Origin: Myxococcales bacterium
Lineage (GTDB): Bacteria; Myxococcota_A; Polyangia; Polyangiales; DASUME01
NCBI GenBank assembly: GCA_047601445.1
Contig: JASGJH010000001.1
Location: 6,272,001 to 6,336,000, forward strand
DNA: 64,000 nucleotides
Direction of reading: 5' to 3'
This document shows positions 1,519 through 61,029 of this stretch, one piece after another. Below the pieces are notes generated by a model that saw only the letters and a list, made by a program, of their open reading frames with translations, was not told the DNA's origin and ran no database searches. The translations under genes were made by a program, and so were the position numbers. Positions within the stretch are counted from its first letter, which is position 1. Every line of letters begins with the position of its first letter.

Positions 1519-4500
1519 TTGGTGTTTGGGCGAAAGGCACCCGTGCGCGCTCTGCGATTTCTTCCGGTCCTCGCCTCTGTCACTCTCCTCAGCTGCCTCG
1601 CTCCCGGCGATGAGGGCGAGCCCTACGACGACGAACTCGACGCGGGCATGGAGGAGAACTCCGATGCACCCGTCGTTCACGGCGTGGAACAGGGGCTGCA
1701 AACAAGCCTATGCGGCAACGTCGCGGGCCTGCAGGCGAACGCAGGATCACCTATGCGCGGAGGCTGCCCGACCCACTCTGCGCAGAGCTCGCTCTACGGG
1801 CCCGCAACGCTCCCCGCGCAACCCAACTGGGCGCGCGACACGCTGTGGGACGTGCGCTCCGCGCCGGCTGTGGCCGCTGACGGCACCATCTACTTCGGGT
1901 CCGACGACAGCTACTTCTACGCCATCAACCCGACCAACGGCACCGAGAAGTGGAAAGTGTTCCTGTGGAACCAGATCAAGTCGAGTCCCGCCATCGCGGC
2001 CAACGGCACCATCTACGTGGGCTCCAACGCGAACAAGATCCACGCCATCAGCCCCACCACGCACGCTGAGATCGCAGCTTTCGACACCTTCGACGACGTG
2101 ACCGCGTCCCCTGTCATCGGTGGCGACGGCACCGTGTACATCGGAAGCAAGACCGGCAAGTTTTACGCCCTCAACGCCAGCCTCGGAAAGAAGTGGGAGT
2201 TCACCACCGGCGGCGCCATCCGCACCTCCGCGGCCGTCGGTCCCGACGGCACCATCTACTTCAGCTCTGACGACAACAAGCTCTACGCCCTCACGTCGAC
2301 CGGCGCGGCCAAGTTCCCCGCCAAGACCCTCGGCGTCACCAACACCGAGTCCTCCCCCGCCGTGGCCAACGGCAAAGTCTACGTGGCCTCCAACGCCAAC
2401 AAGCTTCATGCGTTCGATGCGGTGACCGGCAACCTCCTCTGGGAGCGCACCCTCGGCAGCGGCAGCTCTTACGTGGGCTCCCCCGCAGTCGATGCCAACG
2501 GCGTCATCTATATCGGCGGCGGCGATTTCAAACTCCACGCCTTCACTCCCGACGGCGACGAACTCTGGGCGTTCCCGACCCTGGGCGCCATCCTCGCCGC
2601 CCCCGCCATCGACCGTGGCGGGAACATCTACTTTGGCAGCGACGATGATTCTCTTTACTCCGTCGACGCCGGCGGCAATCTGCGCTGGAAATACACCACC
2701 TGGAACAACGTCGAAGGGCACCCGGTGATCGGTGCGAACGGCGCGATTTTGGTGGGCAGCGATGACAACAAGCTGCACAGCGTGGGCGCGGCAGGGCCGG
2801 CGCCCAAGGCGGTGGGGCAGACTTGTGCGCTCGATGCGGATTGTGCGCAGGGGTTGATCTGTGGGGATGGGAATGGCGCGAGGTACGGCCTCGCGGCGAC
2901 TGCTCGCGCCTGCTGGGAGCCGAGTTGCCAGAACGGAGTAAAGGACCAGGGGGAGACCAAGGTCGACTGCGGTGGTCCGTGCGGAACTTGCAACGCGATC
3001 TGCGTGAGTCCGTGCGTGCTCGGGGAGCAAGTTGCTCCGCCCGCGATTGCATCCCTGAACTTCGAAGCCGGAACCTTCGTACGTGGCAGCCTCGCGACGT
3101 TTACCAAGGAGGACGGAACCATCGAAAGGGCCACTGCGCACCAGCTTCGGTACCTCAGTTCGCCTGGCAAGAAGCGCATCGCCCTCTTCGAGGGTGAGCG
3201 CACCAATACCGTCATTCGCTCGGAAGAGCTGAACAAGATCCCCGGCTGGTTTGTGCCCGACTTCTTGGTCGGGGCCCCGATTCAGCTCCAGGTCGATGTC
3301 GGCACGGCGCCGGACGGCACCACCAGCGCCGACAAGCTCCTCGCTCCGAACGGAGGGATTCCCGCTACGATTCAGCTCGCAGCGAACCCCAATGGCGCCG
3401 GCACCTTAAGTGCCTTCGTAAAGAACGCGGGCTCAAATGCCGGCAAGACACGCCTCATCTTGTTCGATCCCATTGTCAGCAACCTCTACGCGAACGCAGA
3501 CGCGTGGGACCTGCCTACTCAGTGGAAGCGCTTTGACAAGGATTCGCAGGCTGCAGCCATCCCACTGTACCTGGCGGCCTCTCATGTACAGAACTACCCG
3601 GCCGGGTTCGGCGATTTGATTCCCTCTCTGCCCGCGGCCGACTACTTCCTCTGGGGCGTGCAGTGGGAATCCGGCTCGTTCCCGAGTTCCTATCTCCCAA
3701 CGAACGACCAGTATCGGAAGCGCAATCCGGACCGCCTGACCTATCCCGCTGCGCAGGTTCCGGCGTGGATGCGTTCGGGAGTCTGGCAGTTCGATGTAAT
3801 GCCCGAGTATTCGAGTGCCGAGCTTCAGAATGGAGAACAGTTCGTGCTGTTCTCGTTTGGAGGCGCTGCGAATACGGTCTCTCTTTCCAAGACCGGCGGA
3901 ACCGGTCATCTCATTCTGAAGGCTGGCGGAGTAGTCGCCTTCGACGGTTCGTTTTCGTGGCAGCGTGGGCAAGTCATCACGGTGACCGTCGACACGGCGG
4001 CGGGCCTTGCTCACTTGAAGGGGCGCGAGTTTGATGCGTGGACGACACCGCACGCTTTCTCGTTCGGCTCCGGTGACCTTCGCGTAGGCGGCATTCTTGC
4101 TGGTGCGACCGAAGCATTCGCTGGGTTGACGGAACCCAGGCAGGTGACGGCACCCGCCGTAGTTTGTCAGCCGGACCCAAGCTGCACGCTCTGCGGCGAC
4201 GGCCAAGTCTCTGCGGGCGAGACCTGCGACCCCGGCACAAATCCTCGTTGTGCTGGCGATTGCCTGGCCGAGAGCGGGCTAACACTGTGCGACACCGCGG
4301 ACGGCTGCGTTTGTCCCCCGGGAACGAGTCTGCCAGTCCAGCGCAACGGTGGCGCGTTCGGTGCTTCGGCGTCGCGCTTCGTTTGTGTCCCTACCGCGCT
4401 CTGCCCAGCTCAATGCGGCAGCATCGACGGAGTCTGTGGCCTGTGCCCGGCCTGCGTTCCTCACTGTGAAGGAGCAACGTGCGGCTCTCCAGGCGACGGT

Positions 4501-7500
4501 TGTGGCGGAAGCTGCCCAGTCTGTCAGGGCGGTCAGACCCCGCCAGACGAAGAAGGCTGCGCTCCAGGATACGTGCTTGGCGATGGCAATGGATGGCGCT
4601 TCCTCGGAGGCGCAAAGGACGAGCGCAGTGTGTGCTGGCCCCGGATCTGCGAGTTCCCGGATGAGCGCAGAATTCCCTGCGGACAGCCGACGGATCCTTG
4701 TGGTGTGTGCGATCCCGAAGTGCTCACTCAATCATTCAACGGAATTCTCGATAAGAAGCGAACTGCTCCGGCGTGTGCTGCCGGCATGGTCAGCAACTCC
4801 GTGGGTGCCTGTCTTCCCGTTGTTGACGCAAAGCTCACCACCTTGGCTTCTCCTGATGCCGTGGGGGCCCTTTCCGGTGCCTTCAGCGTCGAGTTGAACG
4901 GCTCTGCCACATATTCCGTGCCGGTCAACGTGCCTCCTGGTCGTGGTGGCCTGGCACCAGAGTTGGCCTTGACCTATCGCAGTTCCAGCGGAAACAGCTT
5001 GGTCGGCTTTGACTGGTCGATCTCTGGCCTCTCGGCCATCAGCGTCTGCCAACCGACGGTGGTTCAAGACAAGACGCTCAGCAGCCCCGCTTCCGTCATG
5101 GTTCCATTCTGCTTGGATGGTCGAAGACTCATCCCCAAGTCATACGACGCAACCTTGAACCGTACAGAGTGGAGAGTTGAATTCGATCCTGCCGTCCGCG
5201 TTTTTAGCGATGGCGATCAGGACGCGCGCCATGGCTTGCCGACCGGCGACATCGCCCCACAGAGTTGGACCGTCGAAACGGGCGACGGGCGAAAGTCGGA
5301 GTATGGGCTCGATGATCTATCCCGGCTCGACAGAAACAGCTTCGGAGTTCTTCCGGTCGAAGGATCCTATGGCCACATCGGGGCAAGGGCCTGGGCAATA
5401 AGCCGCATTACCGATCGAGCGGGAAATCGCATCAACTTCCAGTATGCGGATAACGGTACGAACCAAGCAGCCAAGCCCGCTTGGATTGGATACAACCCGG
5501 TCACTGTCAACGGAAACGGCGACGACGCGACCTCGGAAATCGTATTCACATACGACGCCCCGCAACAGAACGGCTTTGAGGTGCTCCCGCGTCCCGACGT
5601 GTTTTTTGGCGCGCAGTACCGAGAGGGGATCCATCGGGTCGACCGCTTGGCGAAGATTGAGGTACGATCGTTTGGACGCGTACTTCGGTCATACGTCATA
5701 TCAATCAAAACCAGTGGCAACGGTCTAACCCTGGTGGACCACATCACTGAATGTGCGGGACCCGGGGATGGACATTGCACCTCACCGACCAAGTTCACGT
5801 ATGCGCCATCGGACAGGACCACTTTCAAACTGACCGACCCATCGGTTCCAGCGCCAAGTGATGGCAAGCACCAGCAGGTGGGGCTCGATTGGAATTCCGA
5901 CGGCTTCGATGACCTTGCAGTTTTCGACGGAAATCGATGGGACGTGTTTCTAGGAAGTTCCTCTGGGCTTGCCATGGCCGCGACGAGTTCTTTCTCTGCA
6001 AAGCCGCTTCGCGCGACCAAGAACGCCGCCGGCTTTTTGACACAACCTGTCTTTGTGCTCGATTTTGAGCAAGACGGGCAACAGGATGTCATCCTCGAGT
6101 CGGTCGATACGCAGAACAAGGCTGCTCTTGTTCGGGTCTCTGCCTTCCACAGCCCGCAGGTGTTGTACGTACCATGGCCCAGTGGAATGCCCGCAAAGAA
6201 CGGGCAATTCGTTGCCTTCGATGCCAACGGAGACAGTCTCGACGACTTCCTCTACTGTACCGGGGATTCACGCAAATGGCTTCTGTTCAGGAATGCTGGC
6301 GGTTCCCTTTCCTCACCTGTGGAGATCGCGAACACGAAGGGGTTCTGCGACGACGCAGTCGTGATGCCTACACAGTGGGGCAATGAAACGGTGCTCTGGA
6401 CCGAGCGTCGCGACGGCGACATCATGCAGCTCGACAGCGGCATGTTCACCGCGGCCTTCTACGCTCACCCGACGCCGCCCGCTGACGGTCTTGACCCCGA
6501 CCCCGCCATCGACCTTGTTGGCCTCTCCGATGTGAATGGCGACGGCTTGGGTGATGTGATTCGTGCCTCGGAGGTGCAAGAGGGGTCCGACGACTGGGGT
6601 AAGACGCTCTTCAAGATCTACGCTGGGACCGGTGGCACGCCGTACTACTACGGTGTCGGGCGCCGCTTGACGGGAAATCTGGGTGAAAAAGTCTACGCAG
6701 CTGCGACTTCCGTTCGGACCATGGATTTTGATCGCGACGGCAAGCAGGATCTGCTTCTTGCAACGACGGATTTCGATCGCACGAAGACGACTTGGGACTT
6801 CTATAAGGAGTCACGCGTGCCGTCCGGCCCCACCTGGCCCGTCACCTATGGAGAGGATCTGAAGGGCTTTCAGACCGTCGTCATCAACAGTCCCTACGCG
6901 GCGCCCGAGTTCATCGACGTCAACGGCGATGGCGCAGCAGATCTCCTGGCCGACGGAAGGCTCTACTGGGGCCAGCAACCAAACGCAAACCTTCTAACTG
7001 GTATCACGATCTCATCGCACGCGTCCGATGTCCCCGATGGGCTTGAGATCAACTACACAACGGGTATTGGTTCCGGCGTTTATCAACCTGGAGGAAGTGG
7101 AAATGGTTGCGACGACCGTCTAACTACCACCGCCATGTGCATGCGCCGATTGCCGCATCCCGTGGTCGCAAATTGGACACGCCGTTCGTTCAAGCAAGCT
7201 GCTGCGGATCCGCAGATCGTTCGCAGCTCTGGCGAGGTGTATACATACGAGGACTCGCGCTACGACAGGCTAGGCCGAGGGTGGCTTGGCTTTGGGAAGC
7301 GAACCGTCTATCGCTTCGGATTCGACGGCGTCCAATCTTCAACCGTCGAGGAGCACTACGACCTGAGTCGGGTCAGCCAAGGGGATCAGGATACGGGGGT
7401 CGTCCCGTACTTCGCGCAGCTACCGTTAACCCAAGGCCAGAGATGGGGCGCCCTCGAGCGCCTTGACTACTACTACTATCCGTACGTGTTTCGTCCTTCG

Positions 7501-10500
7501 CTCGTGCGTGAAACCACGAGTGCGCTGGGCGACGAAACAACGCGCGGCGGACTCATAACGCGGGTCCAGGAAACGTCGTACGAGTATGAGCTGATTCCGA
7601 CGGATTATGATGCAGTGCCATACACGGCTCTGCGCAGGTCCGAAGCGAAGCTCTTTGAGGGCGACGCCTTGGTTGATCAGGAGGTCTCCACCTATACCCA
7701 CGATTCATACGGCAATGTGAAAACCTGGGTCCGCTCGTTTCCCCTCGAGCCAAACGACGCCATGGAGACTCGGTTCAACTCCTTCGCACACGAGTCTGAT
7801 CCGAGCCGAATTGATAGATGGCAGGTCGCTCTCCCTGCTGAGGAGGCTTTTGTGGCCACGCAGGGACCTGAAGACGTCCCTCTCGTCGCCATCAAGAACC
7901 TTGAATACGATTCACAGGGGCTCGTGTCCGTGGTGTTCCTTAACAAGGACGACGCACTCCGAGCAGCGGGTTCAAAGACAACATTCGGAAGAGACCCGTG
8001 GAACAACATCGGAAGTGCGACCGTCGAGCCCTTGGAGGGGCCTGCTGAACTAAAGGTGACCTCCGTACAGTTCGACTCGCTTGGCATTCTACCTACGGCA
8101 GTTACGAATCCCGCGGGGCATGTGGACCACTATGACTTTAGCTTCGCCGACGGTCGGCTGGTCAAGCATACGGACTCGAACTCGCTTGTGAGCGAATGGC
8201 AGTACGACGGGTTCGGTCGCCTGGTTGCTCGTTCATCGGCGGGAATTTCCGAAACATTCAGATACTCTGCCGCGGCATACAGCGAGTCCGAGGTCCTGTC
8301 TGTCAATGCTGTGACCTCAATCTTGATCTCGACGGTAGCGGGCGGCTTGTCTTTGGAAGAGACGACATTCGTTAGCCAGGATGGTGACGTTGTCGGCCAG
8401 AAGTCACCGGGCTTTCAGGGAACCGTCGTCCTTCAGGAGTTCACCTACGACGGCCTAGGTCGTCGAACGCAGGCAAGTCGACCGCATTTGTCGGGCGACA
8501 GAACTCAGGGAAGCCAGTCCTACGACTATGACGCTTGGGGGCGTCTCGTGAAGACGAGAGCCGCCGACAGTACAGAAACGAAGTACTTCTATGCCAGCTC
8601 GGCAACGACCAGCTACGATCCAAGCACCATTCAAATGAGTCCAAGGGCTCGTTGGATCACTACCACCGAAACACCCAAGCATGAACGACTGATTCGGCAG
8701 CTCGATGCAGACGGCCAGGTGCTGGTGATGCATGATGCAGGTGGCCAGGCGGTCTCAACGTTTGAATACGGCATTGGCGGGTTCGTAACGGGCATTGTGG
8801 ATCCGGACGGGAACCGTACGGTGCGTGTGCCAGACCTTCAGGGACGGCTAAGGGAACTCCACGATCCCGACACGGGCGATCACTCGTTCGACTACAAATG
8901 GAGCGGCGAATTGAAGTCGCACATTCAGAACGGCGAGGAGAACGCGTTCGACTACGATTCCATCGGGCGTCTGTTGGTACGAACCAATCGAGACGGAGAG
9001 GCTAGATGGACCTGGGACCACGACGAGCTAAGAGGGGTCACGCGCGTCGGCGCACTGCTTCGGACCACTAGCCCGTCTGGGAGTGCTGAAGAGCTGTCGT
9101 ACGACCACCCGTATGGCGCGCTGACCTCGATCAAGAGGACGTTCAAGAACCCGAGGGGAGATGTCGAACTCGCGGTAGGTCTCGAATATGACGCCTTCCT
9201 GCGCCCAGAGTTCATCCAATATCCGGGTGCACTGCGAATCAAGAACGAATACGACGGCGCCTTCTTGTCGCAAGTGCGGAACGCGAACGTCAGCGCCGAG
9301 GTGTTCTGGAAGTTGGAGGCTGCTTATCAGGGATATCTCCCGTCGCGCGTTGCGCTAGGCACTAGCAATATGAGGCAGTTCACAACCTACGAGCCATCGA
9401 CCGGTCGTGTCAGCGGACTTCAGACGACTGCTCCCGGACAGCAGGATCTGGTTTCTCAGACGATGGGATACGATCCGAATGGAAGAACTGAGTGGCTTCA
9501 CGACATCCCCCACGTGGCGGAGAACAAGTTCGTGTACGACGACTTGGGGCGCCTCAAGTCCGTTAGACGTCGATTTGGTTCGGCATCCGATCCCGATCTT
9601 GCGCACTTCGACTACTCGCCATCAGGCAGGATCCTCAGCAAATCCGACGTCGGAACATACGTCTACGATCCGAGCAATGGGCATCCTCATGCGGTGGACA
9701 GTGTTGTCGGACCGGACGGGACGACCAGCTACTTCTACGACTCATTCGGAAGGCTGGAGCGACGCACTGGGCCAGCTATTCCATCCGGCGAGCAGAAGCT
9801 GGCGTATGACGGGACAGGCCTGATCAAGACGATCGAAAGCAACGTTGAAGGGTTGCGCGAGTACTCGTACGGTGCATCTGGCGACAAGATGATGGTGATT
9901 TCCAAGCCATCCGCTGAATCGCCGGCTTCATCGGTAGCTCTTTTTCTCGGCAAGTGGTTCGAGCAGCGGCAGGCGGCTGAGCAGGGGCCCTGGACCGAGA
10001 TATCGCGAATCTTTGCAGCGGGAACGGCGATCGCTGAAGTCATTACGGTCAACGGCGCAGAACGCAAAGTGAGATACCTGCATCGGGATCACCTCAATTC
10101 GGTTGTCGCAGTCTCCGACGGCGATGGAGGTAATCGCGAGGTCAGGTCCTTCGGATTCTTTGGCGAGAACGAGAGTGTGGAGGAGGCGGTCGAGACCCTC
10201 GGGTACACGGGGCATCAACACGAGCCCGACACATCGTTGATAGACATGGTTGGCCGGCTCTACGACAGCTATATCGGTCGATTCGTAACGCCAGATCCCG
10301 GGATCCCGAACCCAGAATCCACCCAGTCATATGATCGCTACGCGTACGTGTTCAACGACCCACTCACGCTGATCGATCCGTCTGGCTTCGTCCCAGACAT
10401 GCCACCGTCGCAACCACCGTCCAACTGCGATACGGACTGCCAAGTCCCTCCGCAAGGTGGCGTTGGAATCGGAGGACGAAGTCGCGAAGCGCGCGAAAGT

Positions 10501-11301
10501 CATGTGAATCATGCGAAGCGCATTCTGAAGGAGATCTTCACCCTCGGATTTGCCGACACGGACACCGACAAGAGCATTGCGCCCAAGAACAAGGGCGCCG
10601 ATCCTGGCCGGATTGAGGGGTCCAGTGGTCCGACGCCGACGAAGCTCTTTTCATTGGGTAGCGTGCCGTGGCCGCTCGGAACGCTCAACGCTCCGAAGGA
10701 AACCCCTTGGCACGGCTGGGCCAAGGAGTTCCTTAGAAAGATCGATGAGACTGAATCGCGGATTCGGAATCGCGGATTCGTCGAGACCTTGGACGTACCA
10801 AAGCTCGCTCTACTCGTGATCGGTGAGTTCTTTGTAGGGCTTGCTGCCGACGCGACACCAGAACAGGTGCTCATCGCGATTGCATCACAAGGGAGGGCCG
10901 TTGGAGCCGGCGGTGTCGGGGGACCGCTTGCGGCGATGGCTCCGCGGTTCCGTTACCCTGCCGCAAGGGGACCCCAGGCGCCGTCGCCCATTCGCAATAT
11001 TCCAGCGAACGCCCAAATCCGCGTGCTGAAGCCTGACCCGAACGGCGGCGCACAGTATGGTGTCGAGTACAAGTGGATAGATCAGCAAGGACAAACCGTT
11101 CGCTTCCGTGTTCATGGACCCGACGGAACCGCTCCTTCCGGTTCCAACGCGGCGAGCGGCGTTACATTTCGCGTGCAGGTTGGGGGACGTTACATGGACG
11201 CAGAAGGGAACCTGTACCCGCGAGGTGTGCACAATCCGCAGAGCCCGAACTACGACCCTGCAGCCGCGAACGCGACCCACATTCCCTGGCCTGGAGAGTG
11301 A
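1519..11301 (+). CDS. Rhs/YD-repeat polymorphic toxin with lipoprotein signal, PQQ-like beta-propeller, Cys-rich regions, SpvB, FG-GAP and TcdB-middle regions, Rhs core and C-terminal Ntox30-type RNase (likely start GTG 1543)
   Basis: Lipobox VTLLSC. About 8 SPAxxxDGTIYxGSxDxKLYA repeats (1747-2787). SpvB motif GSATYSVPVNVPPGRGGLAPELALTY. DxNGDGxxD repeats and YDxxGR repeats. Core GRLYDSYIGRFVTPDP...YAYVFNDPLTLIDPSG. Tip with RVH and terminal THIP motifs. Confidence 0.95.
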   Translation: MVFGRKAPVRALRFLPVLASVTLLSCLAPGDEGEPYDDELDAGMEENSDAPVVHGVEQGLQTSLCGNVAGLQANAGSPMRGGCPTHSAQSSLYGPATLPAQPNWARDTLWDVRSAPAVAADGTIYFGSDDSYFYAINPTNGTEKWKVFLWNQIKSSPAIAANGTIYVGSNANKIHAISPTTHAEIAAFDTFDDVTASPVIGGDGTVYIGSKTGKFYALNASLGKKWEFTTGGAIRTSAAVGPDGTIYFSSDDNKLYALTSTGAAKFPAKTLGVTNTESSPAVANGKVYVASNANKLHAFDAVTGNLLWERTLGSGSSYVGSPAVDANGVIYIGGGDFKLHAFTPDGDELWAFPTLGAILAAPAIDRGGNIYFGSDDDSLYSVDAGGNLRWKYTTWNNVEGHPVIGANGAILVGSDDNKLHSVGAAGPAPKAVGQTCALDADCAQGLICGDGNGARYGLAATARACWEPSCQNGVKDQGETKVDCGGPCGTCNAICVSPCVLGEQVAPPAIASLNFEAGTFVRGSLATFTKEDGTIERATAHQLRYLSSPGKKRIALFEGERTNTVIRSEELNKIPGWFVPDFLVGAPIQLQVDVGTAPDGTTSADKLLAPNGGIPATIQLAANPNGAGTLSAFVKNAGSNAGKTRLILFDPIVSNLYANADAWDLPTQWKRFDKDSQAAAIPLYLAASHVQNYPAGFGDLIPSLPAADYFLWGVQWESGSFPSSYLPTNDQYRKRNPDRLTYPAAQVPAWMRSGVWQFDVMPEYSSAELQNGEQFVLFSFGGAANTVSLSKTGGTGHLILKAGGVVAFDGSFSWQRGQVITVTVDTAAGLAHLKGREFDAWTTPHAFSFGSGDLRVGGILAGATEAFAGLTEPRQVTAPAVVCQPDPSCTLCGDGQVSAGETCDPGTNPRCAGDCLAESGLTLCDTADGCVCPPGTSLPVQRNGGAFGASASRFVCVPTALCPAQCGSIDGVCGLCPACVPHCEGATCGSPGDGCGGSCPVCQGGQTPPDEEGCAPGYVLGDGNGWRFLGGAKDERSVCWPRICEFPDERRIPCGQPTDPCGVCDPEVLTQSFNGILDKKRTAPACAAGMVSNSVGACLPVVDAKLTTLASPDAVGALSGAFSVELNGSATYSVPVNVPPGRGGLAPELALTYRSSSGNSLVGFDWSISGLSAISVCQPTVVQDKTLSSPASVMVPFCLDGRRLIPKSYDATLNRTEWRVEFDPAVRVFSDGDQDARHGLPTGDIAPQSWTVETGDGRKSEYGLDDLSRLDRNSFGVLPVEGSYGHIGARAWAISRITDRAGNRINFQYADNGTNQAAKPAWIGYNPVTVNGNGDDATSEIVFTYDAPQQNGFEVLPRPDVFFGAQYREGIHRVDRLAKIEVRSFGRVLRSYVISIKTSGNGLTLVDHITECAGPGDGHCTSPTKFTYAPSDRTTFKLTDPSVPAPSDGKHQQVGLDWNSDGFDDLAVFDGNRWDVFLGSSSGLAMAATSSFSAKPLRATKNAAGFLTQPVFVLDFEQDGQQDVILESVDTQNKAALVRVSAFHSPQVLYVPWPSGMPAKNGQFVAFDANGDSLDDFLYCTGDSRKWLLFRNAGGSLSSPVEIANTKGFCDDAVVMPTQWGNETVLWTERRDGDIMQLDSGMFTAAFYAHPTPPADGLDPDPAIDLVGLSDVNGDGLGDVIRASEVQEGSDDWGKTLFKIYAGTGGTPYYYGVGRRLTGNLGEKVYAAATSVRTMDFDRDGKQDLLLATTDFDRTKTTWDFYKESRVPSGPTWPVTYGEDLKGFQTVVINSPYAAPEFIDVNGDGAADLLADGRLYWGQQPNANLLTGITISSHASDVPDGLEINYTTGIGSGVYQPGGSGNGCDDRLTTTAMCMRRLPHPVVANWTRRSFKQAAADPQIVRSSGEVYTYEDSRYDRLGRGWLGFGKRTVYRFGFDGVQSSTVEEHYDLSRVSQGDQDTGVVPYFAQLPLTQGQRWGALERLDYYYYPYVFRPSLVRETTSALGDETTRGGLITRVQETSYEYELIPTDYDAVPYTALRRSEAKLFEGDALVDQEVSTYTHDSYGNVKTWVRSFPLEPNDAMETRFNSFAHESDPSRIDRWQVALPAEEAFVATQGPEDVPLVAIKNLEYDSQGLVSVVFLNKDDALRAAGSKTTFGRDPWNNIGSATVEPLEGPAELKVTSVQFDSLGILPTAVTNPAGHVDHYDFSFADGRLVKHTDSNSLVSEWQYDGFGRLVARSSAGISETFRYSAAAYSESEVLSVNAVTSILISTVAGGLSLEETTFVSQDGDVVGQKSPGFQGTVVLQEFTYDGLGRRTQASRPHLSGDRTQGSQSYDYDAWGRLVKTRAADSTETKYFYASSATTSYDPSTIQMSPRARWITTTETPKHERLIRQLDADGQVLVMHDAGGQAVSTFEYGIGGFVTGIVDPDGNRTVRVPDLQGRLRELHDPDTGDHSFDYKWSGELKSHIQNGEENAFDYDSIGRLLVRTNRDGEARWTWDHDELRGVTRVGALLRTTSPSGSAEELSYDHPYGALTSIKRTFKNPRGDVELAVGLEYDAFLRPEFIQYPGALRIKNEYDGAFLSQVRNANVSAEVFWKLEAAYQGYLPSRVALGTSNMRQFTTYEPSTGRVSGLQTTAPGQQDLVSQTMGYDPNGRTEWLHDIPHVAENKFVYDDLGRLKSVRRRFGSASDPDLAHFDYSPSGRILSKSDVGTYVYDPSNGHPHAVDSVVGPDGTTSYFYDSFGRLERRTGPAIPSGEQKLAYDGTGLIKTIESNVEGLREYSYGASGDKMMVISKPSAESPASSVALFLGKWFEQRQAAEQGPWTEISRIFAAGTAIAEVITVNGAERKVRYLHRDHLNSVVAVSDGDGGNREVRSFGFFGENESVEEAVETLGYTGHQHEPDTSLIDMVGRLYDSYIGRFVTPDPGIPNPESTQSYDRYAYVFNDPLTLIDPSGFVPDMPPSQPPSNCDTDCQVPPQGGVGIGGRSREARESHVNHAKRILKEIFTLGFADTDTDKSIAPKNKGADPGRIEGSSGPTPTKLFSLGSVPWPLGTLNAPKETPWHGWAKEFLRKIDETESRIRNRGFVETLDVPKLALLVIGEFFVGLAADATPEQVLIAIASQGRAVGAGGVGGPLAAMAPRFRYPAARGPQAPSPIRNIPANAQIRVLKPDPNGGAQYGVEYKWIDQQGQTVRFRVHGPDGTAPSGSNAASGVTFRVQVGGRYMDAEGNLYPRGVHNPQSPNYDPAAANATHIPWPGE
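10686..10956 (+). repeat. 271-bp direct repeat, copy 1 (inside the Rhs C-terminal region; copy 2 at 15331-15601)
   Basis: CAACGCTCCGAAGGAAACCCC...GCTCCGCGGTTCCGTTAC is colinear and near-identical with 15331-15601, with mostly synonymous differences. Confidence 0.95.
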
Positions 11302-11303
11302 TA

Positions 11304-11639
11304 ATGTCCATGAGCAATTCAGATGTTCTTGATGTACTCCGTCAATTGATCTCTCCGGATCACCAAGAGCGCGAACTCGCTGCCGAGGAGCTCACTGATG
11401 TGGTGCGCTCCCTGGAGTCCTTTCAGGTGGCACTCCTCGCAAGTGCGTTGGTTGTTGCGCGCCTCTGCGAGTCCAACGTCACTACTCAAGAGGCTCAGCT
11501 CAATGCGCTTAGCGAGCTTAAGGAATGGCATGACGTGAGCGCCGCTTTGCTAATGCCGCTCAAGCAACTGAGCGCCAACGAACTTCCTGGCTCGCAGGCG
11601 CAACATTTCGCCGACCTGCTCGGATTAGAGCGGGGTTGA
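11304..11639 (+). CDS. Putative cognate immunity protein of the Ntox30-type tip (111 aa, helical)
   Basis: ATG 2 bp after the toxin stop, with a GGAGAG RBS. Small acidic ORF in the canonical immunity position. Confidence 0.8.
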   Translation: MSMSNSDVLDVLRQLISPDHQERELAAEELTDVVRSLESFQVALLASALVVARLCESNVTTQEAQLNALSELKEWHDVSAALLMPLKQLSANELPGSQAQHFADLLGLERG

Positions 11640-11786
11640 CCGGACATCAGTTTCGGTCCATTCGCCAAAAAATGGGATTTGTTTACGGACGCACTGCGTG
11701 AATGGGGGTTTACGGGGCCACCCGAGCGACGTCCGCCCTGGCTCTCGCGCTAGCCAGCAGTGAGAATGGTGCTTGTCTACTGCTCA

Positions 11787-12383
11787 GTAACCGTCCTGTA
11801 GACCGCGTGGTCGCGGCCCCGATCGCCACCGCGTAGACATTCTCGCAGGAGGCGAGATGCCGCGAGGACAAGTAGAGGCAAGCGCCGAGGTCTGGCGGGA
11901 CCGTGTGCAGCGTTGGAAGCAAAGCGGTTTGACTGCAAAGGCATTTGCAGAGCTCGAAGGGCTTCCGCGGGCAGGCGCGCTGTCGTGGTGGCGTCACCAG
12001 CTCGCTGCACGGGATAAGAAGTCGCTGCCGGTCGTCGACGGGCCGGTGCGCCTGGTCCGGCTGGAGGCCGTGCCGACGACGCCGAGCGGCAAACGTCGGG
12101 GGCGTGAGGAAGCGGTCGTGGCGCCAATCGAGATTGCGTGCGGGGCGTACCGCGTGGTCGTTCGCGCCGGCTTCGACCCCATGATGCTCGAAGGCGTGCT
12201 GCGAGCGTTGGAGCGTGCACGATGATCGGACGCAACGTTGCGATTTACGTGGCCGTGACGCCGCTCGATATGCGTCGCAGCTTCGACGGGCTCGCGGCAG
12301 CAGCACGCGAGACGCTGCGTCAGGACCCAGAGAGCGGCGCATTGTTCCTGTTTGCAAACAAACGCGGACATCGCGTCAAGATC
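11787..12383 (+). mobile_element. IS66 left-end fragment 1 (IRL + tnpA + 5' tnpB), 597 bp
   Basis: Starts GTAACCGTCCTGTAGACC and matches 12825-13421. Stops after ...CGTCAAGATC, directly before the next IRL. Confidence 0.95.
11857..12225 (+). CDS. tnpA: IS66 accessory protein TnpA (copy 1)
   Basis: WRDRVQRWKQSGLTAKAFAE HTH-like motif, typical of IS66 Orf1. Confidence 0.85.
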   Translation: MPRGQVEASAEVWRDRVQRWKQSGLTAKAFAELEGLPRAGALSWWRHQLAARDKKSLPVVDGPVRLVRLEAVPTTPSGKRRGREEAVVAPIEIACGAYRVVVRAGFDPMMLEGVLRALERAR

Positions 12384-12398
12384 GTAACCGTCCTGTAG
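12222..12398 (+). pseudogene. tnpB: Truncated IS66 TnpB (Orf2)
   Basis: DMRRSFDGL...LFLFANKR..RVKI, then interrupted by the next IRL. Confidence 0.85.
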
Positions 12399-12824
12399 AC
12401 CGCGTGGTCGCGGCCCCGATCGCCACCGCGTAGACATTCTCGCAGGAGGCGAGATGCCGCGAGGACAAGTAGAGGCAAGCGCCGAGGTCTGGCGGGACCG
12501 TGTGCAGCGTTGGAAGCAAAGCGGTTTGACTGCAAAGGCATTTGCAGAGCTCGAAGGGCTTCCGCGGGCAGGCGCGCTGTCGTGGTGGCGTCACCAGCTC
12601 GCTGCACGGGATAAGAAGTCGCTGCCGGTCGTCGACGGGCCGGTGCGCCTGGTCCGGCTGGAGGCCGTGCCGACGACGCCGAGCGGCAAACGTCGGGGGC
12701 GTGAGGAAGCGGTCGTGGCGCCAATCGAGATTGCGTGCGGGGCGTACCGCGTGGTCGTTCGCGCCGGCTTCGACCCCATGATGCTCGAAGGCGTGCTGCG
12801 AGCGTTGGAGCGTGCACGATGATC
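12384..12824 (+). mobile_element. IS66 left-end fragment 2 (IRL + tnpA), 441 bp
   Basis: Same IRL; ends ...CACGATGATC directly before the third IRL. Confidence 0.95.
12454..12822 (+). CDS. tnpA: IS66 TnpA (copy 2)
   Basis: Identical 122-aa ORF. Confidence 0.85.
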   Translation: MPRGQVEASAEVWRDRVQRWKQSGLTAKAFAELEGLPRAGALSWWRHQLAARDKKSLPVVDGPVRLVRLEAVPTTPSGKRRGREEAVVAPIEIACGAYRVVVRAGFDPMMLEGVLRALERAR

Positions 12825-12894
12825 GTAACCGTCCTGTAGACCGCGTGGTCGCGGCCCCGATCGCCACCGCGTAGACATTCTCGCAGGAGGCGAG

Positions 12895-13263
12895 ATGCCG
12901 CGAGGACAAGTAGAGGCAAGCGCCGAGGTCTGGCGGGACCGTGTGCAGCGTTGGAAGCAAAGCGGTTTGACTGCAAAGGCATTTGCAGAGCTCGAAGGGC
13001 TTCCGCGGGCAGGCGCGCTGTCGTGGTGGCGTCACCAGCTCGCTGCACGGGATAAGAAGTCGCTGCCGGTCGTCGACGGGCCGGTGCGCCTGGTCCGGCT
13101 GGAGGCCGTGCCGACGACGCCGAGCGGCAAACGTCGGGGGCGTGAGGAAGCGGTCGTGGCGCCAATCGAGATTGCGTGCGGGGCGTACCGCGTGGTCGTT
13201 CGCGCCGGCTTCGACCCCATGATGCTCGAAGGCGTGCTGCGAGCGTTGGAGCGTGCACGATGA
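12895..13263 (+). CDS. tnpA: IS66 TnpA (copy 3)
   Basis: Identical 122-aa ORF; ATGA overlap with tnpB. Confidence 0.88.
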   Translation: MPRGQVEASAEVWRDRVQRWKQSGLTAKAFAELEGLPRAGALSWWRHQLAARDKKSLPVVDGPVRLVRLEAVPTTPSGKRRGREEAVVAPIEIACGAYRVVVRAGFDPMMLEGVLRALERAR

Positions 13264-13637
13264 TCGGACGCAACGTTGCGATTTACGTGGCCGTGACGCC
13301 GCTCGATATGCGTCGCAGCTTCGACGGGCTCGCGGCAGCAGCACGCGAGACGCTGCGTCAGGACCCAGAGAGCGGCGCATTGTTCCTGTTTGCAAACAAA
13401 CGCGGACATCGCGTCAAGATCCTATGGTGGGACCGGACGGGCTACTGTCTTTTGCAAAAACGGCTCGAATGGGGAGCATTTCGTTTGCCTCGTACACTCG
13501 ATGCAAATGCGACCACCGTGGCGATCGACGTGGCGGAGCTGTCGAAGATCCTCGAAGGCGTGAAGCTGCCGCCGAAGAAGCACCGCATGCGCAAGCAGGC
13601 GGAAGAGAAGCCATCCATCTTCAAGTTGCCACGCTGA
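13260..13637 (+). CDS. tnpB: IS66 accessory protein TnpB (Orf2)
   Basis: PLDMRRSFDGL, KILWWDRTGYCLLQKRLEWGAF motifs. Confidence 0.92.
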   Translation: MIGRNVAIYVAVTPLDMRRSFDGLAAAARETLRQDPESGALFLFANKRGHRVKILWWDRTGYCLLQKRLEWGAFRLPRTLDANATTVAIDVAELSKILEGVKLPPKKHRMRKQAEEKPSIFKLPR

Positions 13638-13662
13638 GATCGGAGGTGTAAGTCACGCTAGC

Positions 13663-15294
13663 GTGACCTTTGAAGAGCTCGTCGCGAACTTCCAGAAGCT
13701 CTCGAGCAGACTCGAGCAAGTAAAGCACGTCGCGACACGTGCTAGCGAAGAGCGAGACGAGTTCAAGCGTGAGCGAGACGAGTATCGGAAGCTCTACGAG
13801 CTCGTGTCATTGGAGCTTGAGCGTACGCGTCGCCACCTGTTCGGCCGCAAAGCAGAGGCCGCCGATGCCGCGCAGACGCAGCTCGCGTTCTTGCTCGCTA
13901 CGGATCCCTCGGCAACCGCCGATGCGGCTCTCGCTAACGAAGGGGCGTCGAGCGGTTCTTCGCGGGGCGAGCGACCGAAGGCCGCGCCGCATGGTCGGAA
14001 CAAGATCCCAGACCATCTGCCGACCGAGCGGATCGAGCTCGTCCCGCCGGAGGTCCAGCGTGAACCTGAGGCGTTCGAACGCATTGGCGAAGAGACCCGC
14101 GAATTGATCGAGTGGCGGAGCGCTTCTCACGTGCGCGTGATAGTCGTGCGCCCGAAGTTTGTGCGTCGTGGGGCATCGACCAACAGCGTGCTCATCGCCG
14201 AGCCGTTGTCGCTGCCCATCGAGCGCGGTCTCGCTGGGCCCGGACTTCTGGCCTGGGTGTTGGTCAGCAAATACTGCGACCATCTTCCGCTGCATCGCCT
14301 CGAAGGCATGCTGGAGCGCTATGGCGTGCCGGTCGCGCGCTCGACGCTGTGCGGCTGGGTCGAAGCGATGCACCTCCTGGCGGCGCCCGTGGTGAGTGCG
14401 ATGTGGGACGATGCGCTGACGAGCGACTACATCGCAGTCGACGCCACCGGCGTGCTGGTCCAGGCAAAGGAGCGATGCCGACGCGGCCACTTCTGGGTGC
14501 TTGCTTCGGACAACGGGCACGTGCTCTTTCGCTATACCAAGCGGCACACCAAGGGCCACGTCCGCGAACTGCTCGGCGGCTATCGCGGCTACCTGCAGGC
14601 CGACGCGGCCACGGTCTACGATTTTCTGTACCTCGACGAGTCGTGCGTCGAGGTCGGCTGCTGGGCCCATTGCCGCCGCCGGTTCTTCGATGCGCTCTCG
14701 ACCGACCGCGAGAGAGCCAACACCGCGCTCGGTTTCATCGCAAAGCTCTATCAGATCGACCGCGACACCTTGGAACTCGGCGCCGAACGTCGTACCCACG
14801 AACGGGCCGCACGCGCGGGCCCCGTGCTCGAAGCTTTCTTTGCCTGGCTCGATGAACGTGAACTCGAGGTTCTTCCCGAAAGTCCGATCGGAAAGGCCGT
14901 CGGCTACGCCCACAATCAGCGGGTCGCACTCCAGCGTTTCCTGGACGACGGTCGGCTTCGGCTCGACAACAACCGCAGCGAGCGTGAGCTTCGCCGTGAG
15001 GCGGTCGGTCGCAAAAAATGGCTCTTCGTCGGCAGCGACGACGGCGCCAAATGGAACGCCACCTTCGTGTCCCTGATCGCCAGCTGCCAGCAGCACAAGC
15101 TCGAGCCCTGGGCTTACCTCCGCGACCTCTTCTGCCTGATTCCAGACTGGCCGCAGACCCGCCTGCTCGACCTCGCACCCAAGCACTGGCGCCAGACAAG
15201 CGAGCAGCCCGAAGTTCAGCGACGACTCGCCGCCAACAAACTCCGCGCCATTTCGCTCGCTGCTACGCACTCAGCCCAGGCTACGCCGGGATAG
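13663..15294 (+). CDS. tnpC: IS66 DDE transposase TnpC
   Basis: KYCDHLPLHR, VDATG, LQADA, CWAHCRR, LDNNRSERELR, GRKKWLF motifs. Confidence 0.97.
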   Translation: MTFEELVANFQKLSSRLEQVKHVATRASEERDEFKRERDEYRKLYELVSLELERTRRHLFGRKAEAADAAQTQLAFLLATDPSATADAALANEGASSGSSRGERPKAAPHGRNKIPDHLPTERIELVPPEVQREPEAFERIGEETRELIEWRSASHVRVIVVRPKFVRRGASTNSVLIAEPLSLPIERGLAGPGLLAWVLVSKYCDHLPLHRLEGMLERYGVPVARSTLCGWVEAMHLLAAPVVSAMWDDALTSDYIAVDATGVLVQAKERCRRGHFWVLASDNGHVLFRYTKRHTKGHVRELLGGYRGYLQADAATVYDFLYLDESCVEVGCWAHCRRRFFDALSTDRERANTALGFIAKLYQIDRDTLELGAERRTHERAARAGPVLEAFFAWLDERELEVLPESPIGKAVGYAHNQRVALQRFLDDGRLRLDNNRSERELRREAVGRKKWLFVGSDDGAKWNATFVSLIASCQQHKLEPWAYLRDLFCLIPDWPQTRLLDLAPKHWRQTSEQPEVQRRLAANKLRAISLAATHSAQATPG

Positions 15295-15330
15295 CGTCGG
15301 CGCCCACGACGCGGTTCACCGGACGCTTAC

Positions 15331-15937
15331 CAACGCTCCGAAGGAAACCCCTTGGCACGGCTGGGCCAAGGAGTTCCTTAGAAAGATCGATGAGACTGAA
15401 TCGCGGATTCGGAATCGCGGATTCGTCGAGACCTTGGACGTACCAAAGCTTGCCCTACTCGTGATCGGTGAGTTCTTTGTAGGGCTAGCTGCCGACGCGA
15501 CACCAGAACAGGTGGTCATCACAATTGCGTCACAAGGGCGAGCCGTTGGGGCCGGAGGTGTCGGGGGACCGCTTGCGGCGATGGCTCCGCGGTTCCGCTA
15601 CTCTGTCCCAAGGGCGGCGGCGTTCCCGCGAGCCACGCTACAAGGAGTTTCGCTGAGATGGCTGCAACGAAACAAGCCTAGCGGCTGGAGAACGGTAACG
15701 ACCGCAAACAACGAGGGTTGGATTTGGAAGGACTCAAACGGCATCGAGCGATTGAGGTTCATGCGTCCCAACGGGTCCAATCCGGCGGGCAGCCAATGGA
15801 GCAGACAGGCCAACGGGTACTTTCGTTGGCAGAACGAGGCAGGCGAGTACTTGGATGTGAGTGGCAATGTAGTTCAGCGGTCCGACCCTCGGTTCGAAGA
15901 ACTCTCACATATCATGTACGAAGGGCCTCTGCCGTGA
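15331..15937 (+). pseudogene. Orphan Rhs C-terminal toxin module (5' truncated by IS66) with an alternative toxin tip
   Basis: The first 271 bp repeat 10686-10956. After MAPRFRY the sequence diverges into a distinct ~110-aa tip ending GEYLDVSGN...EELSHIMYEGPLP. Confidence 0.88.
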
Positions 15938-15952
15938 TAAGGGAGCCATTGA

Positions 15953-16432
15953 ATGCGCACGATCGACTCGCCCGACGAAGTGCTCGGCAGGATGCTCGAA
16001 TGTCTTGTAATTGCATTTTCATATTCAGTCGAAGCGAAGAGATTCGTGCTTGTGTCTGACTATCCCGATAAGTCACCCGGGAGTGTGCGAGAGCTGATTG
16101 CACTTGTTTTCCACGACGTGGACCGATTCTTCCGTGAGCCGGGTGATTTGCCAGCGCTAGCCAGATTCCATTTCAGCTATTTTGCCAGAGACGAAGTCGG
16201 TGGGCGCGTAGTGCAATCCGTACAGAGCACAGACGTGGCGCCAGGTCTTCGGCGCGCAAGATTTTGGTTCGGGCCGAACTTCGGTGGCGTAACACTCGAC
16301 TATCGATCCCTTGCAGGACTCGCGCGCGGTTCACGCGTCGTGCAGAAGGGGCGCGAGTTCGTCTACAGCGACGTGCAGACTAGTCTTGAGTTCGACTTCT
16401 ACAACCCGTTTCCCGATCTGCTGAACCCGTAG
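15953..16432 (+). CDS. Putative immunity protein of the orphan toxin (159 aa)
   Basis: Directly downstream of the orphan tip, with an AAGGGAG RBS; no resemblance to the first immunity protein. Confidence 0.78.
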   Translation: MRTIDSPDEVLGRMLECLVIAFSYSVEAKRFVLVSDYPDKSPGSVRELIALVFHDVDRFFREPGDLPALARFHFSYFARDEVGGRVVQSVQSTDVAPGLRRARFWFGPNFGGVTLDYRSLAGLARGSRVVQKGREFVYSDVQTSLEFDFYNPFPDLLNP

Positions 16433-19375: not shown

Positions 19376-20329
19376 TCAGAAGCGGAACTTGCAGGTGGCG
19401 CTGGCGAAGCCCACGCCGCACTGAGTGGCGGCTTGCTGCTTGTCATCGCGGCCGCTCAGGGCGCCCCACACGATAAGGCCCGCACCGCCTGCCAGGAGTG
19501 CGCCGCCGACCGCGTAGCCGACGATGCTCTGGGTCTTCACAGAGTCGTTCTGGCCAGGGTCCGGGCAGTAGTCTTTGTCGCAGTCGACCTTGTCGCCGCC
19601 GCGCACGCCGCCGTAGATCAACAGGCCGGCGCCGACGGCCGCCACGCCGCTGCCCACGCCGATCAGGATCCACTTCTTCTTGTTCGAGCCCGAGTCCGTG
19701 GTCGCCGCGCCACCCGTGGTGGTGGTGCCGCCGACGACGACGGTGCCGCCGGCTCCCTTGCCCGCGTCCGCCGGCAGGGCCACTTCGATGACCTGACCGG
19801 CAGGTACGATGACGTTGGTGCGGAACTCGGGCTGTCCGGACCAGGTCACCACCAGCACGTGGCTGCCGGGAGCCAGCGTGATCTTGTCGGGGCGCGGTGT
19901 GCGGCCCCAGTCCTGCTGGTCGACGGTGATCAAGCCGCCCTCGGCGCCACCGCGCACGAGGAGACCGGTGGCCGCGATGCGCGCCTGCAGCGCGGAGAGC
20001 CGCGCGTTGGCGTCGGAGTACATGGGGTCGTCGGGATCCGCCGAGTCCAGGAACTGCCTGAGCGCGGCCATGGCCTTCTCGAGATCGCCGATGCGCTCGT
20101 AGGCCTGCGACAAGTTGAACTGGATGCGCGGGCGCGGATCCGCCGAATAGGCGGCCGACCACTCGCGAATGGCCATGTCGTAGTTGCCGGCGCTGTAGGC
20201 CGCTTCGCCGCGGCGGAAGGCTTCACGAGCGTCGACGGCCGGGGCCGGAGCACTCGTAGGAGCCTGCGCGAAGCTGGCGGCAGGGATGAGGAGCAAGAAC
20301 GCGAAATACAAGGCTCTGAGGCGCAGCAT
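19376..20329 (-). CDS. Exported TPR + PEGA-like domain protein with a C-terminal Gly-rich hydrophobic region
   Basis: Signal peptide; TPR (AREAFRRGEAAYSAGNYDMAIREW...FNLSQAYERIGD); PEGA-like ITVD...GRTP...LAPGSHVLVV; ends CKFRF. Confidence 0.85.
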   Translation of the reverse strand: MLRLRALYFAFLLLIPAASFAQAPTSAPAPAVDAREAFRRGEAAYSAGNYDMAIREWSAAYSADPRPRIQFNLSQAYERIGDLEKAMAALRQFLDSADPDDPMYSDANARLSALQARIAATGLLVRGGAEGGLITVDQQDWGRTPRPDKITLAPGSHVLVVTWSGQPEFRTNVIVPAGQVIEVALPADAGKGAGGTVVVGGTTTTGGAATTDSGSNKKKWILIGVGSGVAAVGAGLLIYGGVRGGDKVDCDKDYCPDPGQNDSVKTQSIVGYAVGGALLAGGAGLIVWGALSGRDDKQQAATQCGVGFASATCKFRF

Positions 20330-20477
20330 CGATTCTCCCATGGCACGGCGCGTCACGCTGGCGAGGATACCCTTTCCCCGGGGGGGTGCGCGAACTTCCA
20401 TTGCAACGACTCCGTGGAAATCCGCTCCGCCTCGAGATCACGGGACGAAAAAAGGACCGGGTCCGTCGCGCCGTCAG

Positions 20478-21005
20478 TCAGGCGCCGGTCTTCTCGGTGG
20501 CGGCCAGCAGCTCGGGCGGCAGCGTGATGCGCCCGGTGTTGCGCTGGCGATTCTCCGGATCGCGCAGGGCTTCCGTGAGGCGCGCGCGATCGAGGGCGCG
20601 GTAGTCGGGGGCTGCTCCGTTGGGGGGCGGCCCCTCGGCGGCCACCCACAGCCGAATCGGGCCGAGAGCGATCACGGCCTGTCCGAGGATGGCCACCCAC
20701 TCGTTCAGACGTTTGCCGTTGACCGTGGTGCTGCCGAGACGCAGCGCGTCCTCGAGCCAGAAGTTGGTGCCGTCCCAAACGGCGTCAAAGTGGCGTGGTG
20801 CGACGCTCGGGTGTCGCAGGCACAGGCTCGCATTGGCGTCGCTTCCGATTACCAAGCGCGCGGGGCGGCCAGCCTCGAAGAGAAACCTGCGCGGGGTATC
20901 GCCGCGCACGATCACCAGTCGTGCCCAGGCGCCACCATTTGCCTTCGCTTGTTCCACACCTACTCCGTGCGACCGACGTGGGCCCTCGACCCTCTGCCAT
21001 CTCAC
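20478..21005 (-). CDS. FHA domain protein
   Basis: LVIGS...LRHPSVAPRH...FWLED...STTVNG pattern (degenerate FHA). Confidence 0.75.
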   Translation of the reverse strand: MRWQRVEGPRRSHGVGVEQAKANGGAWARLVIVRGDTPRRFLFEAGRPARLVIGSDANASLCLRHPSVAPRHFDAVWDGTNFWLEDALRLGSTTVNGKRLNEWVAILGQAVIALGPIRLWVAAEGPPPNGAAPDYRALDRARLTEALRDPENRQRNTGRITLPPELLAATEKTGA

Positions 21006-21121
21006 CTACGCTCCCGGCCCGGCGAGATCCCCTGCTATTTTTCCCAATGGTGGCTGGAATCAATCACTGAACGTTTTGTCAGAAATTTGGACATCTGTTC
21101 AGGTAGGCGGATACTGGTCGC

Positions 21122-21592
21122 ATGAACAGCCAAGCGTCCCGCCCCCACACCGCTCTCGCCCTCGAACCAAGCGCTCAGGTCGTCCTGCGCGCGCTCTTCC
21201 AGCTCGCCCTTGCGGATTGCCCGGCCGACGCCGGTAGCGTTGCCCGCCTGCTCGGCCTGCGCGCGAGCCAGGTGGCCCAGGCGCTCGTGGAGCTCGACGT
21301 TCAGGGCCTGGTCGATGCCGAGCGCGCCCGGCTCACCATGCGTGGGCTGGCCGTCGCGGCAGGCCTGCCCGCGATCACGGTGCCGGAGAACGAGGCTCGT
21401 CCCGCGCTGCGTCAGGGCCTCGCGCTGCACCGGCAGCCGCATCCCGCCGAGCTGTCCTCGGCGTCGGGCCGAGAGCTGCGCCATACGCGCGTGGCTCGCC
21501 GCGCGGCCTTCAGGAGCTCACGCGCAGAACCGCGCGCTTCGACGGCGGGGCGGCGCACGATTCGCGCGAGCCATTCGGCGGTTTCGCTGTAG
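21122..21592 (+). CDS. Hypothetical protein with a winged-helix-like N-terminus
   Basis: VARLLGLRASQVAQALVELDVQGLVD...RLT pattern; lies upstream of the kinase in the same orientation. Confidence 0.55.
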   Translation: MNSQASRPHTALALEPSAQVVLRALFQLALADCPADAGSVARLLGLRASQVAQALVELDVQGLVDAERARLTMRGLAVAAGLPAITVPENEARPALRQGLALHRQPHPAELSSASGRELRHTRVARRAAFRSSRAEPRASTAGRRTIRASHSAVSL

Positions 21593-21604
21593 CCTCGTCC
21601 CTGC

Positions 21605-23380: not shown

Positions 23381-23422
23381 GTCCGCGCGCAACTTGGTGC
23401 TCGCTCGACCGATAGCAACCCC

Positions 23423-59581: not shown

Positions 59582-60673
<1,092 letters not shown>

Positions 60674-61029
60674 GTTTAGAAGCTCCAAGCAGTGAGGTTG
60701 GCGGACGCTCTCACGCACCGAAAAAGGGCGCAAGAGGGGGGTCCTTTCGCGGGGTTACGTCCGCTGCACCTACGGCCATGCACGTCGAAAAATCACCGTG
60801 GAGGTGAAATTTCGGAGCATTTCGAAGAGCTCTCCGGGGCGCGCGAAAAAAGCGGCGAAAGATGAGTCAATTGGGGGCCTTGGCGGAATGACTCGAGAGA
60901 CCAGAAAAGCGTCAGCGCAGGCTTCACGCGACACTTGGGGACAGTCCGTCGACTCCTTGGGTCAGCGCCCAGCAGGGGGCCCGAATCAGGCAGAAGAGCG
61001 TGATTTGCCTAGCAAACGCTCGTCGATTT

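Follow-up and report, generated by a model that had tools for sequence, protein, structure and literature searches.

In Rhs toxins the shell encloses a C-terminal cargo, which is cut off by an aspartyl autoprotease. For the giant Rhs/YD cocoons that carry a signal peptide, recognition of the target and entry into it are stated as open in the available text of PMC13018210 and PMC10047993. Here we describe such a giant Rhs toxin gene, lying in a window of 64,000 nucleotides (the whole stretch analysed, positions 6,272,001 to 6,336,000 of contig JASGJH010000001.1) from a Myxococcales bacterium. With the TcdB/TcaC class, as presented in the accessible parts of Zhang et al. 2012 (PMC3482391), its product shares a signal peptide, SpvB, an integrin-like propeller and RHS repeats; there, Ntox30 appears under this class, the hosts of the class include delta-proteobacteria and no immunity family is given for Ntox30. 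It resembles the bacterial teneurin-like proteins (TLPs), as far as the text of PMC13018210 available to us describes them, in the YD shell around a polymorphic toxin, the variable N-terminal adhesion domains, the immunity genes, the Sec/signal peptidase II (SPII) prediction in Myxococcota and in having no obvious delivery machine. Myxococcus xanthus Rhs4 and Rhs5 are likewise giant signal-bearing Rhs proteins, which act in kin discrimination independently of outer-membrane exchange (OME) and of the secretion system of type VI (T6SS) (PMC10433427 and PMC10047993, both reviews).

We favour, with moderate confidence, the view that this one gene encodes a Sec-exported, outer-membrane-tethered and glycan-binding Rhs cocoon, independent of TcA, which would kill other bacteria by contact. 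Killing by signal-bearing myxobacterial Rhs proteins without OME or T6SS, reported in the accessible part of PMC10433427, supports this view. The features of the locus, all on the forward strand, are as follows.

1543-11301: gene for the giant Rhs toxin, encoding 3252 aa when started at GTG 1543 (the open frame from TTG 1519 has 3260 aa)
1543-1596: predicted type II signal peptide with lipobox Cys (LLS-C), from a PROSITE-like pattern, the Cys being conserved in a paralogue and orthologues
1828-2790: PQQ/BamB-like beta-propeller, an exchangeable N-terminal module (aa ~104-424; Pfam PF13360, PF13570)
2824-3015: Cys-rich linker 1, with 11 Cys (from Cys positions)
3016-4170: lectin module of two jelly rolls, one CBM4/16-like and one LamG/ConA-like, with kinship to phage tail fibres and gene transfer agent (GTA) head spikes (NF048003, phrog_5939, PDB matches, structural model)
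4165-4812: Cys-rich linker 2, with 28 Cys (from Cys positions)
4843-10386: SpvB-N/FG-GAP/YD-repeat shell, closed by the Rhs core, whose DPSG lies at 10375-10386 (Pfam/NCBIfam; PF25023 precomputed)
10387-10989: portion of the ~300-aa cargo that precedes the toxin, containing a hydrophobic stretch (aa ~3090-3114) and a linker rich in Gly; 10686-10969 recurs in the orphan cassette
10990-11292: Ntox30 toxin tip (PF15532, aa 3158-3258; RxH...THIP)
11304-11639: candidate cognate immunity gene, 111 aa, HEAT-like helical fold (tip-linked homologues; Atlas model)
11787-15330: IS66 (tnpA/tnpB/tnpC), 3.5 kb, its left end and tnpA occurring in triplicate
15331-15937: orphan toxin cassette, beginning at the IS end and devoid of Rhs core
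15953-16432: candidate orphan immunity gene, 159 aa, preceded by a ribosome-binding-site-like AGGGAG

As the sequence-only reading of this DNA had claimed, the frame from 1519 to 11301 is open over 3260 codons. We regard GTG 1543 as the likely start, because AAAGG lies 5 nt upstream and the resulting protein agrees in length with its database entry, P0005 (3252 aa). A start further downstream, without the signal, was rejected since orthologues retain it. The N-terminus reads MRALRFLPVLASVTLLS-C, its Cys being aa 26 of the TTG frame. The lipobox was scored by a PROSITE-like lipoprotein pattern, and its Cys is kept as LLSC in the in-genome paralogue and, among congeneric orthologues, as LSAC in the full-length one of G009 and as LGAC and LVAC in two G008 fragments. 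Among 72 shell homologues (query excluded) the pattern occurs in 13, against a mean of 1.9 and a maximum of 9 when their first 60 residues were shuffled 1000 times; it is present in 8 of the 13 best shell homologues, Corallococcus and Myxococcus proteins among them. By eye, two of the 13 pattern matches look like false positives, and many other homologues carry ordinary type I-like signals. Since the pattern is found well above the shuffled expectation and type I-like signals are frequent elsewhere, lipid-anchored SpvB-Rhs proteins form, judging from these counts, a real class that is enriched among the closest homologues and in which the anchor is optional. Leu at +2 and Glu at +7 are what the sorting rule given in PMC5562445 leads one to expect of an outer-membrane lipoprotein. 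The pattern and the conserved Cys thus support the proposal of a Sec/SPII-type, probably surface-tethered Rhs cocoon.

A part of this protein absent from the sequence-only reading is a block without Cys (aa 500-884) between the stretches of 11 and 28 Cys. Residues 556-730 score above the cut-off of NF048003, a phage/GTA head spike fibre model, and the whole block matches the tail-protein family phrog_5939 (E 8e-16) and, among PDB sequences, two phage baseplate proteins (8env/9b45, E 7e-5). Its AlphaFold model, computed from 61 aligned sequences, is all-beta with a pLDDT of 90.5. It superimposes on a chain from a phage baseplate (Z 14.9, rmsd 3.0, 169 aligned) and on CBM4-2 (Z 13.4), with further matches to CBM16, tailspikes and LamG/pentraxin domains; over its whole length it resembles viral tail-fibre/ConA-like proteins (TM 0.6-0.7). 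A homologous module is found in the RcGTA head spike fibre and in phage tail fibres (NF048003), and the RcGTA head spike binds capsule polysaccharide, according to the accessible text of PMC10218006.

The best matches of this arm are SpvB-shell toxins. When 1.8 billion proteins were searched with it, all 11 matches with E<=1e-30 displayed the spike module followed by SpvB, an order found in 13 of the 22 distinct arm-match proteins examined. N-terminal to the arm, these spike-SpvB proteins have one of several modules (propeller, CBM96, C-type lectin or LamG), and their C-terminal tips vary (e.g. Ntox17, HINT-linked, Tox-ART-HYD1). Of the 13, six bear a lipobox, which the pattern recognised in four and the eye in two; a type I-like signal is seen in two others, and the remaining five are incomplete at the N-terminus. 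The lectin arm and the shell are the constant part of the subfamily, the lipid anchor being one optional way to hold the capsule. All four NF048003 matches of the host genome (G000) fall within three paralogous Rhs genes, and strong arm matches are confined to four of nine congeneric genomes (60 relatives searched). With aa 1-1094 as query against genome contigs, a single locus was found, on an uncultured Polyangiales contig. A parallel architecture is seen in the 3199-aa metagenomic protein P0039, which has a lipobox, the same propeller, LamG domains and the SpvB-Rhs shell, and no spike domain.

Domain profiles and Cys positions bore out the anatomy proposed from sequence alone, namely propeller, Cys-rich arms, SpvB/FG-GAP/YD shell, DPSG and Ntox30 tip. 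The SpvB domain spans aa 1126-1318 (E 1e-11), and the profiles for SpvB, FG-GAP_3 and RHS repeats (PF03534, PF13517 and PF05593) exceed their cut-offs in the shell. The Rhs core (TIGR03696) covers aa 2881-2956, with DPSG at aa 2953; counted from aa 2952, the cargo behind it comprises ~300 aa (~33 kDa). Tse15 is the sole match of the shell among PDB sequences (E 1e-5). The tip scores 113 bits on Ntox30 (PF15532; cut-off 25, E 8.5e-33), and all 15 tips that were aligned keep both RxH and THIP. While the assignment to Ntox30 with these motifs stood, its designation as an RNase is not established: it is a Pfam prediction, and the best fold match of the tip is a DNase. Indeed the tip model (pLDDT 87.7) gave one match above background, PT7 (8owu; Z 7.0, rmsd 2.9, 72 aligned), which falls below the trust level of Z 8 for structure matches, so that the modelled likeness serves as a lead only; bioRxiv 10.1101/2021.10.19.465003, in its available text, presents PT7 as a DNase rather than a tRNase. 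Among PDB sequences the tip had chance matches only, and Foldseek with its model had none at E<=0.001.

The immunity gene at 11304-11639 and the orphan pair (15434-15937 and 15953-16432) claimed earlier are present. Neither small protein has a match in Pfam or NCBIfam, and both are, judging from gene neighbourhoods, probably cognate immunity proteins, because their genes travel with their tips in other genomes. Directly downstream of related tips in metagenomes, 14 of 17 loci (some being near-duplicates) encode a tblastn homologue of 11304-11639, and the other three share its motif by alignment. The 15953-16432 protein has 16 homologues, and in G030 a 43%-identical one is encoded immediately behind a tip that shares 68% identity with that of the orphan, at a single independent locus. 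This synteny supports the downstream gene as an immunity gene.

The orphan cassette shares 284 bp, 94.7% identical, with the main pre-toxin region and continues into a different, Ntox30-related tip (30% identity), which found no match in plasmids. The IS66 that separates it from the immunity gene had gone unreported in the sequence-only reading. The three copies of the IS66 left end and tnpA are 100% identical; no target-site duplication was seen, nor a second copy of the element in the genome. Elsewhere, a second cluster (G000:C1:2861327-2880607) contains at least seven Rhs-core orphan fragments with no full-length gene nearby.

The toxin gene itself is, by sequence comparison, a mosaic. Compared with the paralogue at 5.57 Mb, the N-terminal region from signal to propeller is 93% identical, the arm 70% and the shell 26-27%, and along the gene the GC content at third codon positions drops from 0.85 to 0.67. 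These contrasting identities support independent reshuffling of the N-terminal modules and arm on one side and of the tip on the other. One paralogue (G000:C1:5576289-5564856) has a doubled spike module and is split into two open reading frames (ORFs); another (G000:C1:5559027-5548942) has a type I-like signal and a Tox-ART-HYD1 tip; the upstream and 5' DNA is common to our gene and both. It is tempting, though tentative, to see here a doubly polymorphic and self-targeting toxin, a lipid-anchored cocoon bearing a lectin of phage receptor-binding type, whose targeting and payload would be reshuffled independently and which would enter cells without TcA, T6SS, CdiB or TraAB. If true, the class of giant Rhs proteins that work free of a secretion system would gain its first receptor hypothesis.

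How might such a cocoon work? The protein would be exported by Sec, acylated at its Cys and sorted to the outer membrane, as its N-terminal sequence suggests, and then exposed at the surface, perhaps via a secretin system or lipoprotein flipping. The YD shell would fold round the C-terminal ~300 aa, and the aspartyl autoprotease, whose DPSG motif is present, would cut this cargo off. The disulfide-rich arms would present the propeller together with the lectin pair of phage-fibre type, a fold predicted by modelling, which may bind surface glycans of a neighbouring bacterium. The shell would then open and the cargo enter the target, its hydrophobic pre-toxin segment leading; there the Ntox30 tip, a predicted nuclease, would act. 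The HEAT-like protein would protect kin, and the orphan cassette could be a spare tip reachable via the 284-bp shared region, its immunity gene perhaps still protective.

Several points weigh against this scheme. In LLS-C, the Leu at -2 departs from the strict lipobox consensus, and the h-region is short; the Sec/SPII assignment comes from a pattern match and a conserved Cys. The best solved sequence matches of the arm are structural baseplate proteins. Moreover, 18 of 201 genomes of the class have a spike domain above the cut-off, and large surface proteins that are not toxins (P0141, P0143, P0165) contain it too, so that it may be a general adhesin, not an aiming device; for the same reason, direct capture of the arm from a phage is not established by sequence. 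Finally, no translocase is known, and the genome's TcA as well as three giant genes beside other SpvB-Rhs genes could act in trans.

A minor possibility is a released toxin, which would leave the cell on outer-membrane vesicles or be cut from its anchor and would reach competitors or prey some distance away. P0002 and P0138, relatives with the same arm and shell, have type I-like signals and no evident anchor, and a closed shell would suit extracellular transit. Yet the lipobox is kept in orthologues, and no ZU5-type releasing protease was found by Pfam.

It is improbable that the protein serves as the BC subunit of a Tc-like ABC complex, its shell docking on TcA or on a giant lipoprotein channel encoded elsewhere, with eukaryotes as possible targets. 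The SpvB/FG-GAP shell is TcB/TcC-like, and the genome has a Tc locus (G000:C1:147722-164803; TcA at 148-157 kb) encoding divergently arranged TcA and TcB-TcC homologues, each in two ORFs. This locus, like the T6SS not mentioned in the sequence-only reading, lies ~6.1 Mb from the toxin gene in sequence coordinates, and none was found in the window. In addition, three paralogous ~2800-aa proteins (G000:C1:5727938-5736541, 8138971-8147268 and 9446173-9455120; 28-40% identical) are each encoded directly upstream of another SpvB/FG-GAP/Rhs gene, the first two with lipobox-like N-termini by eye. They have no Pfam or NCBIfam match and no BLAST similarity to the genome's TcA, for which reasons a TcA-like label was rejected; an unrecognised partner or translocase is possible. 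However, none of the three spike-arm genes adjoins such a partner, TcdB_toxin_midN stays below cut-off in our shell (E 0.019, against E 1e-17 to 1e-23 in partner-linked shells), and the cognate immunity gene points to bacterial targets. A fourth, unclassified lipoprotein-like ORF of 1883 aa (G000:C1:6895362-6901013) converges on an SpvB-Rhs gene with a long Rhs-core orphan array (6.865-6.891 Mb).

More doubtful still is a protein that would act mainly as an adhesin or surface protein, its toxin tip accessory or vestigial. Its 1100-aa N-terminus is adhesin-like and an M. xanthus Rhs mutant shows motility phenotypes (PMC10433427, in its accessible part), but the intact tip motif, the conserved immunity linkage, the orphan cassette and the tip polymorphism all speak against it.

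The sequence-only reading had proposed delivery by TraAB outer-membrane exchange, in the manner of SitA. The outer-membrane-type lipobox would suit such a route, as OME moves outer-membrane lipoproteins (PMC5562445, available text). In the text of PMC6372800 available to us, traAB occurs in all three suborders and is missing from some large-genome myxobacteria, with no conclusive transfer in Sorangium. The TraA model TIGR04566 had no match in the host genome or in 121 genomes of the order; it is over cut-off in one of 151 phylum genomes, G233, of the same class as the host, which serves as positive control and whose TraA found no match in the host genome by tblastn. On NF033763, the five TraB-like proteins tested scored between 109 and 258 bits, whereas the control reached 611. 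Two of the host's TraB-like genes follow genes whose C-termini look MYXO-CTERM by eye, yet these upstream genes match no TraA model. OME is thus unlikely because TraA was not detected despite a same-class control and the TraB-like scores are far below that of the control, although a highly divergent TraA could have escaped detection. Given also the type I-like signals of relatives and the published Rhs killing without OME, carriage of this lipoprotein by TraAB is highly improbable.

The genome encodes one T6SS, with VipB at 5.167 Mb and VgrG at 5.183 Mb. Loading into the T6SS fits poorly with a Sec signal, and we rejected it: the toxin has a signal peptide of Sec type and no PAAR, and the only VgrG of the genome lies 1.09 Mb away. 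Pfam found no VgrG, PAAR, WXG, CdiB or TcA among the scanned ORFs of the window (those of the locus plus 55 from 19.4 kb onward, nearly all >=200 aa), in accordance with what had been claimed. The Pfam type IX secretion model PF11751 had no match in the host genome, its controls being silent too. The proposed route distinct from T6SS and contact-dependent inhibition (CDI) holds in part: no T6SS, CDI or TcA genes are linked, but TcdB/TcaC proteins and Sec/SPII TLPs are precedents and the route is not new in kind.

The surroundings of the locus can be briefly described. The host genome is a single contig of 9.5 Mb with 66% GC and 98.7% completeness, and no phage genes were seen adjoining the toxin locus. 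About 3-9 kb downstream, at 19376-25237, are genes for TPR proteins, a Ser/Thr kinase and a Tad/CpaC-like secretin (PF13629 and PF00263). Of four secretin loci in the genome, only this Tad-like gene (23.4-24.6 kb) is near. A TraB-like barrel/TSP3 protein is encoded at 25957-27549 on the reverse strand (109 bits on NF033763, far below cut-off), and a PET hydrolase-like protein at 59582-60733, also reverse (PF12740, E 3e-66). Genome-wide, many genes are overlapping frame pairs (e.g. window 23423-24602 and G000 7494862-7501585), which suggests indel errors in the assembly; gene splits and the triplicated IS end may be assembly artefacts.

By domain analogy the toxin belongs to the TcdB/TcaC class and seems to work like the Sec/SPII teneurin-like proteins of Myxococcota, probably also like Rhs4/5. 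It has the N-terminal signal (pattern and conserved Cys), SpvB, FG-GAP and RHS of that class; its SpvB is internal (aa 1126) and not directly behind the signal, ~1100 aa with propeller, Cys arms and lectin pair standing between them, and the signal is a lipobox, unlike in the class as outlined in the available text. It also has the attributes of Rhs polymorphic toxins: an Rhs core with DPxG, a variable C-terminal toxin, an adjacent immunity gene and an orphan cassette. The linkage of tcA to tcB/tcC typical of canonical Tc loci is absent here, as is the PAAR/VgrG/Eag linkage of T6SS Rhs effectors, which lack a Sec signal. TLPs, in the part of PMC13018210 at hand, display an FN-plug/NHL/TIP superfold where this protein has SpvB/FG-GAP; Pfam found no NHL in it, TLP-specific profiles not being applied. 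Rhs4 and Rhs5 lie on prophages, whereas no phage genes were seen next to ours; this comparison follows reviews. To our knowledge, SitA has no Rhs shell. It shares the lipobox, the C-terminal nuclease and the adjacent immunity gene but, in the text of PMC5562445 available, occurs only with traAB, and the present host has no detected TraA. From RcGTA and phage fibres, as far as PMC10218006 describes them, our arm differs in that it forms part of a cellular toxin.

A lipid-anchored Rhs cocoon free of any secretion system is therefore not new in kind, since the TcdB/TcaC class, the OME- and T6SS-independent myxobacterial Rhs proteins and the Sec/SPII TLPs are already published. We found no description of a spike-fibre arm on an SpvB-Rhs toxin in the literature covered, which did not extend to the Rhs4/5 primary paper or to supplements. 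As far as our searches reach, what is new is a subfamily with such an arm that exchanges at both ends, together with two candidate immunity families for Ntox30-type tips. This subfamily points to how such toxin capsules might find their victims, and offers a discrete, by its model well-folded lectin module of 385 aa, testable alone for cell and glycan binding.

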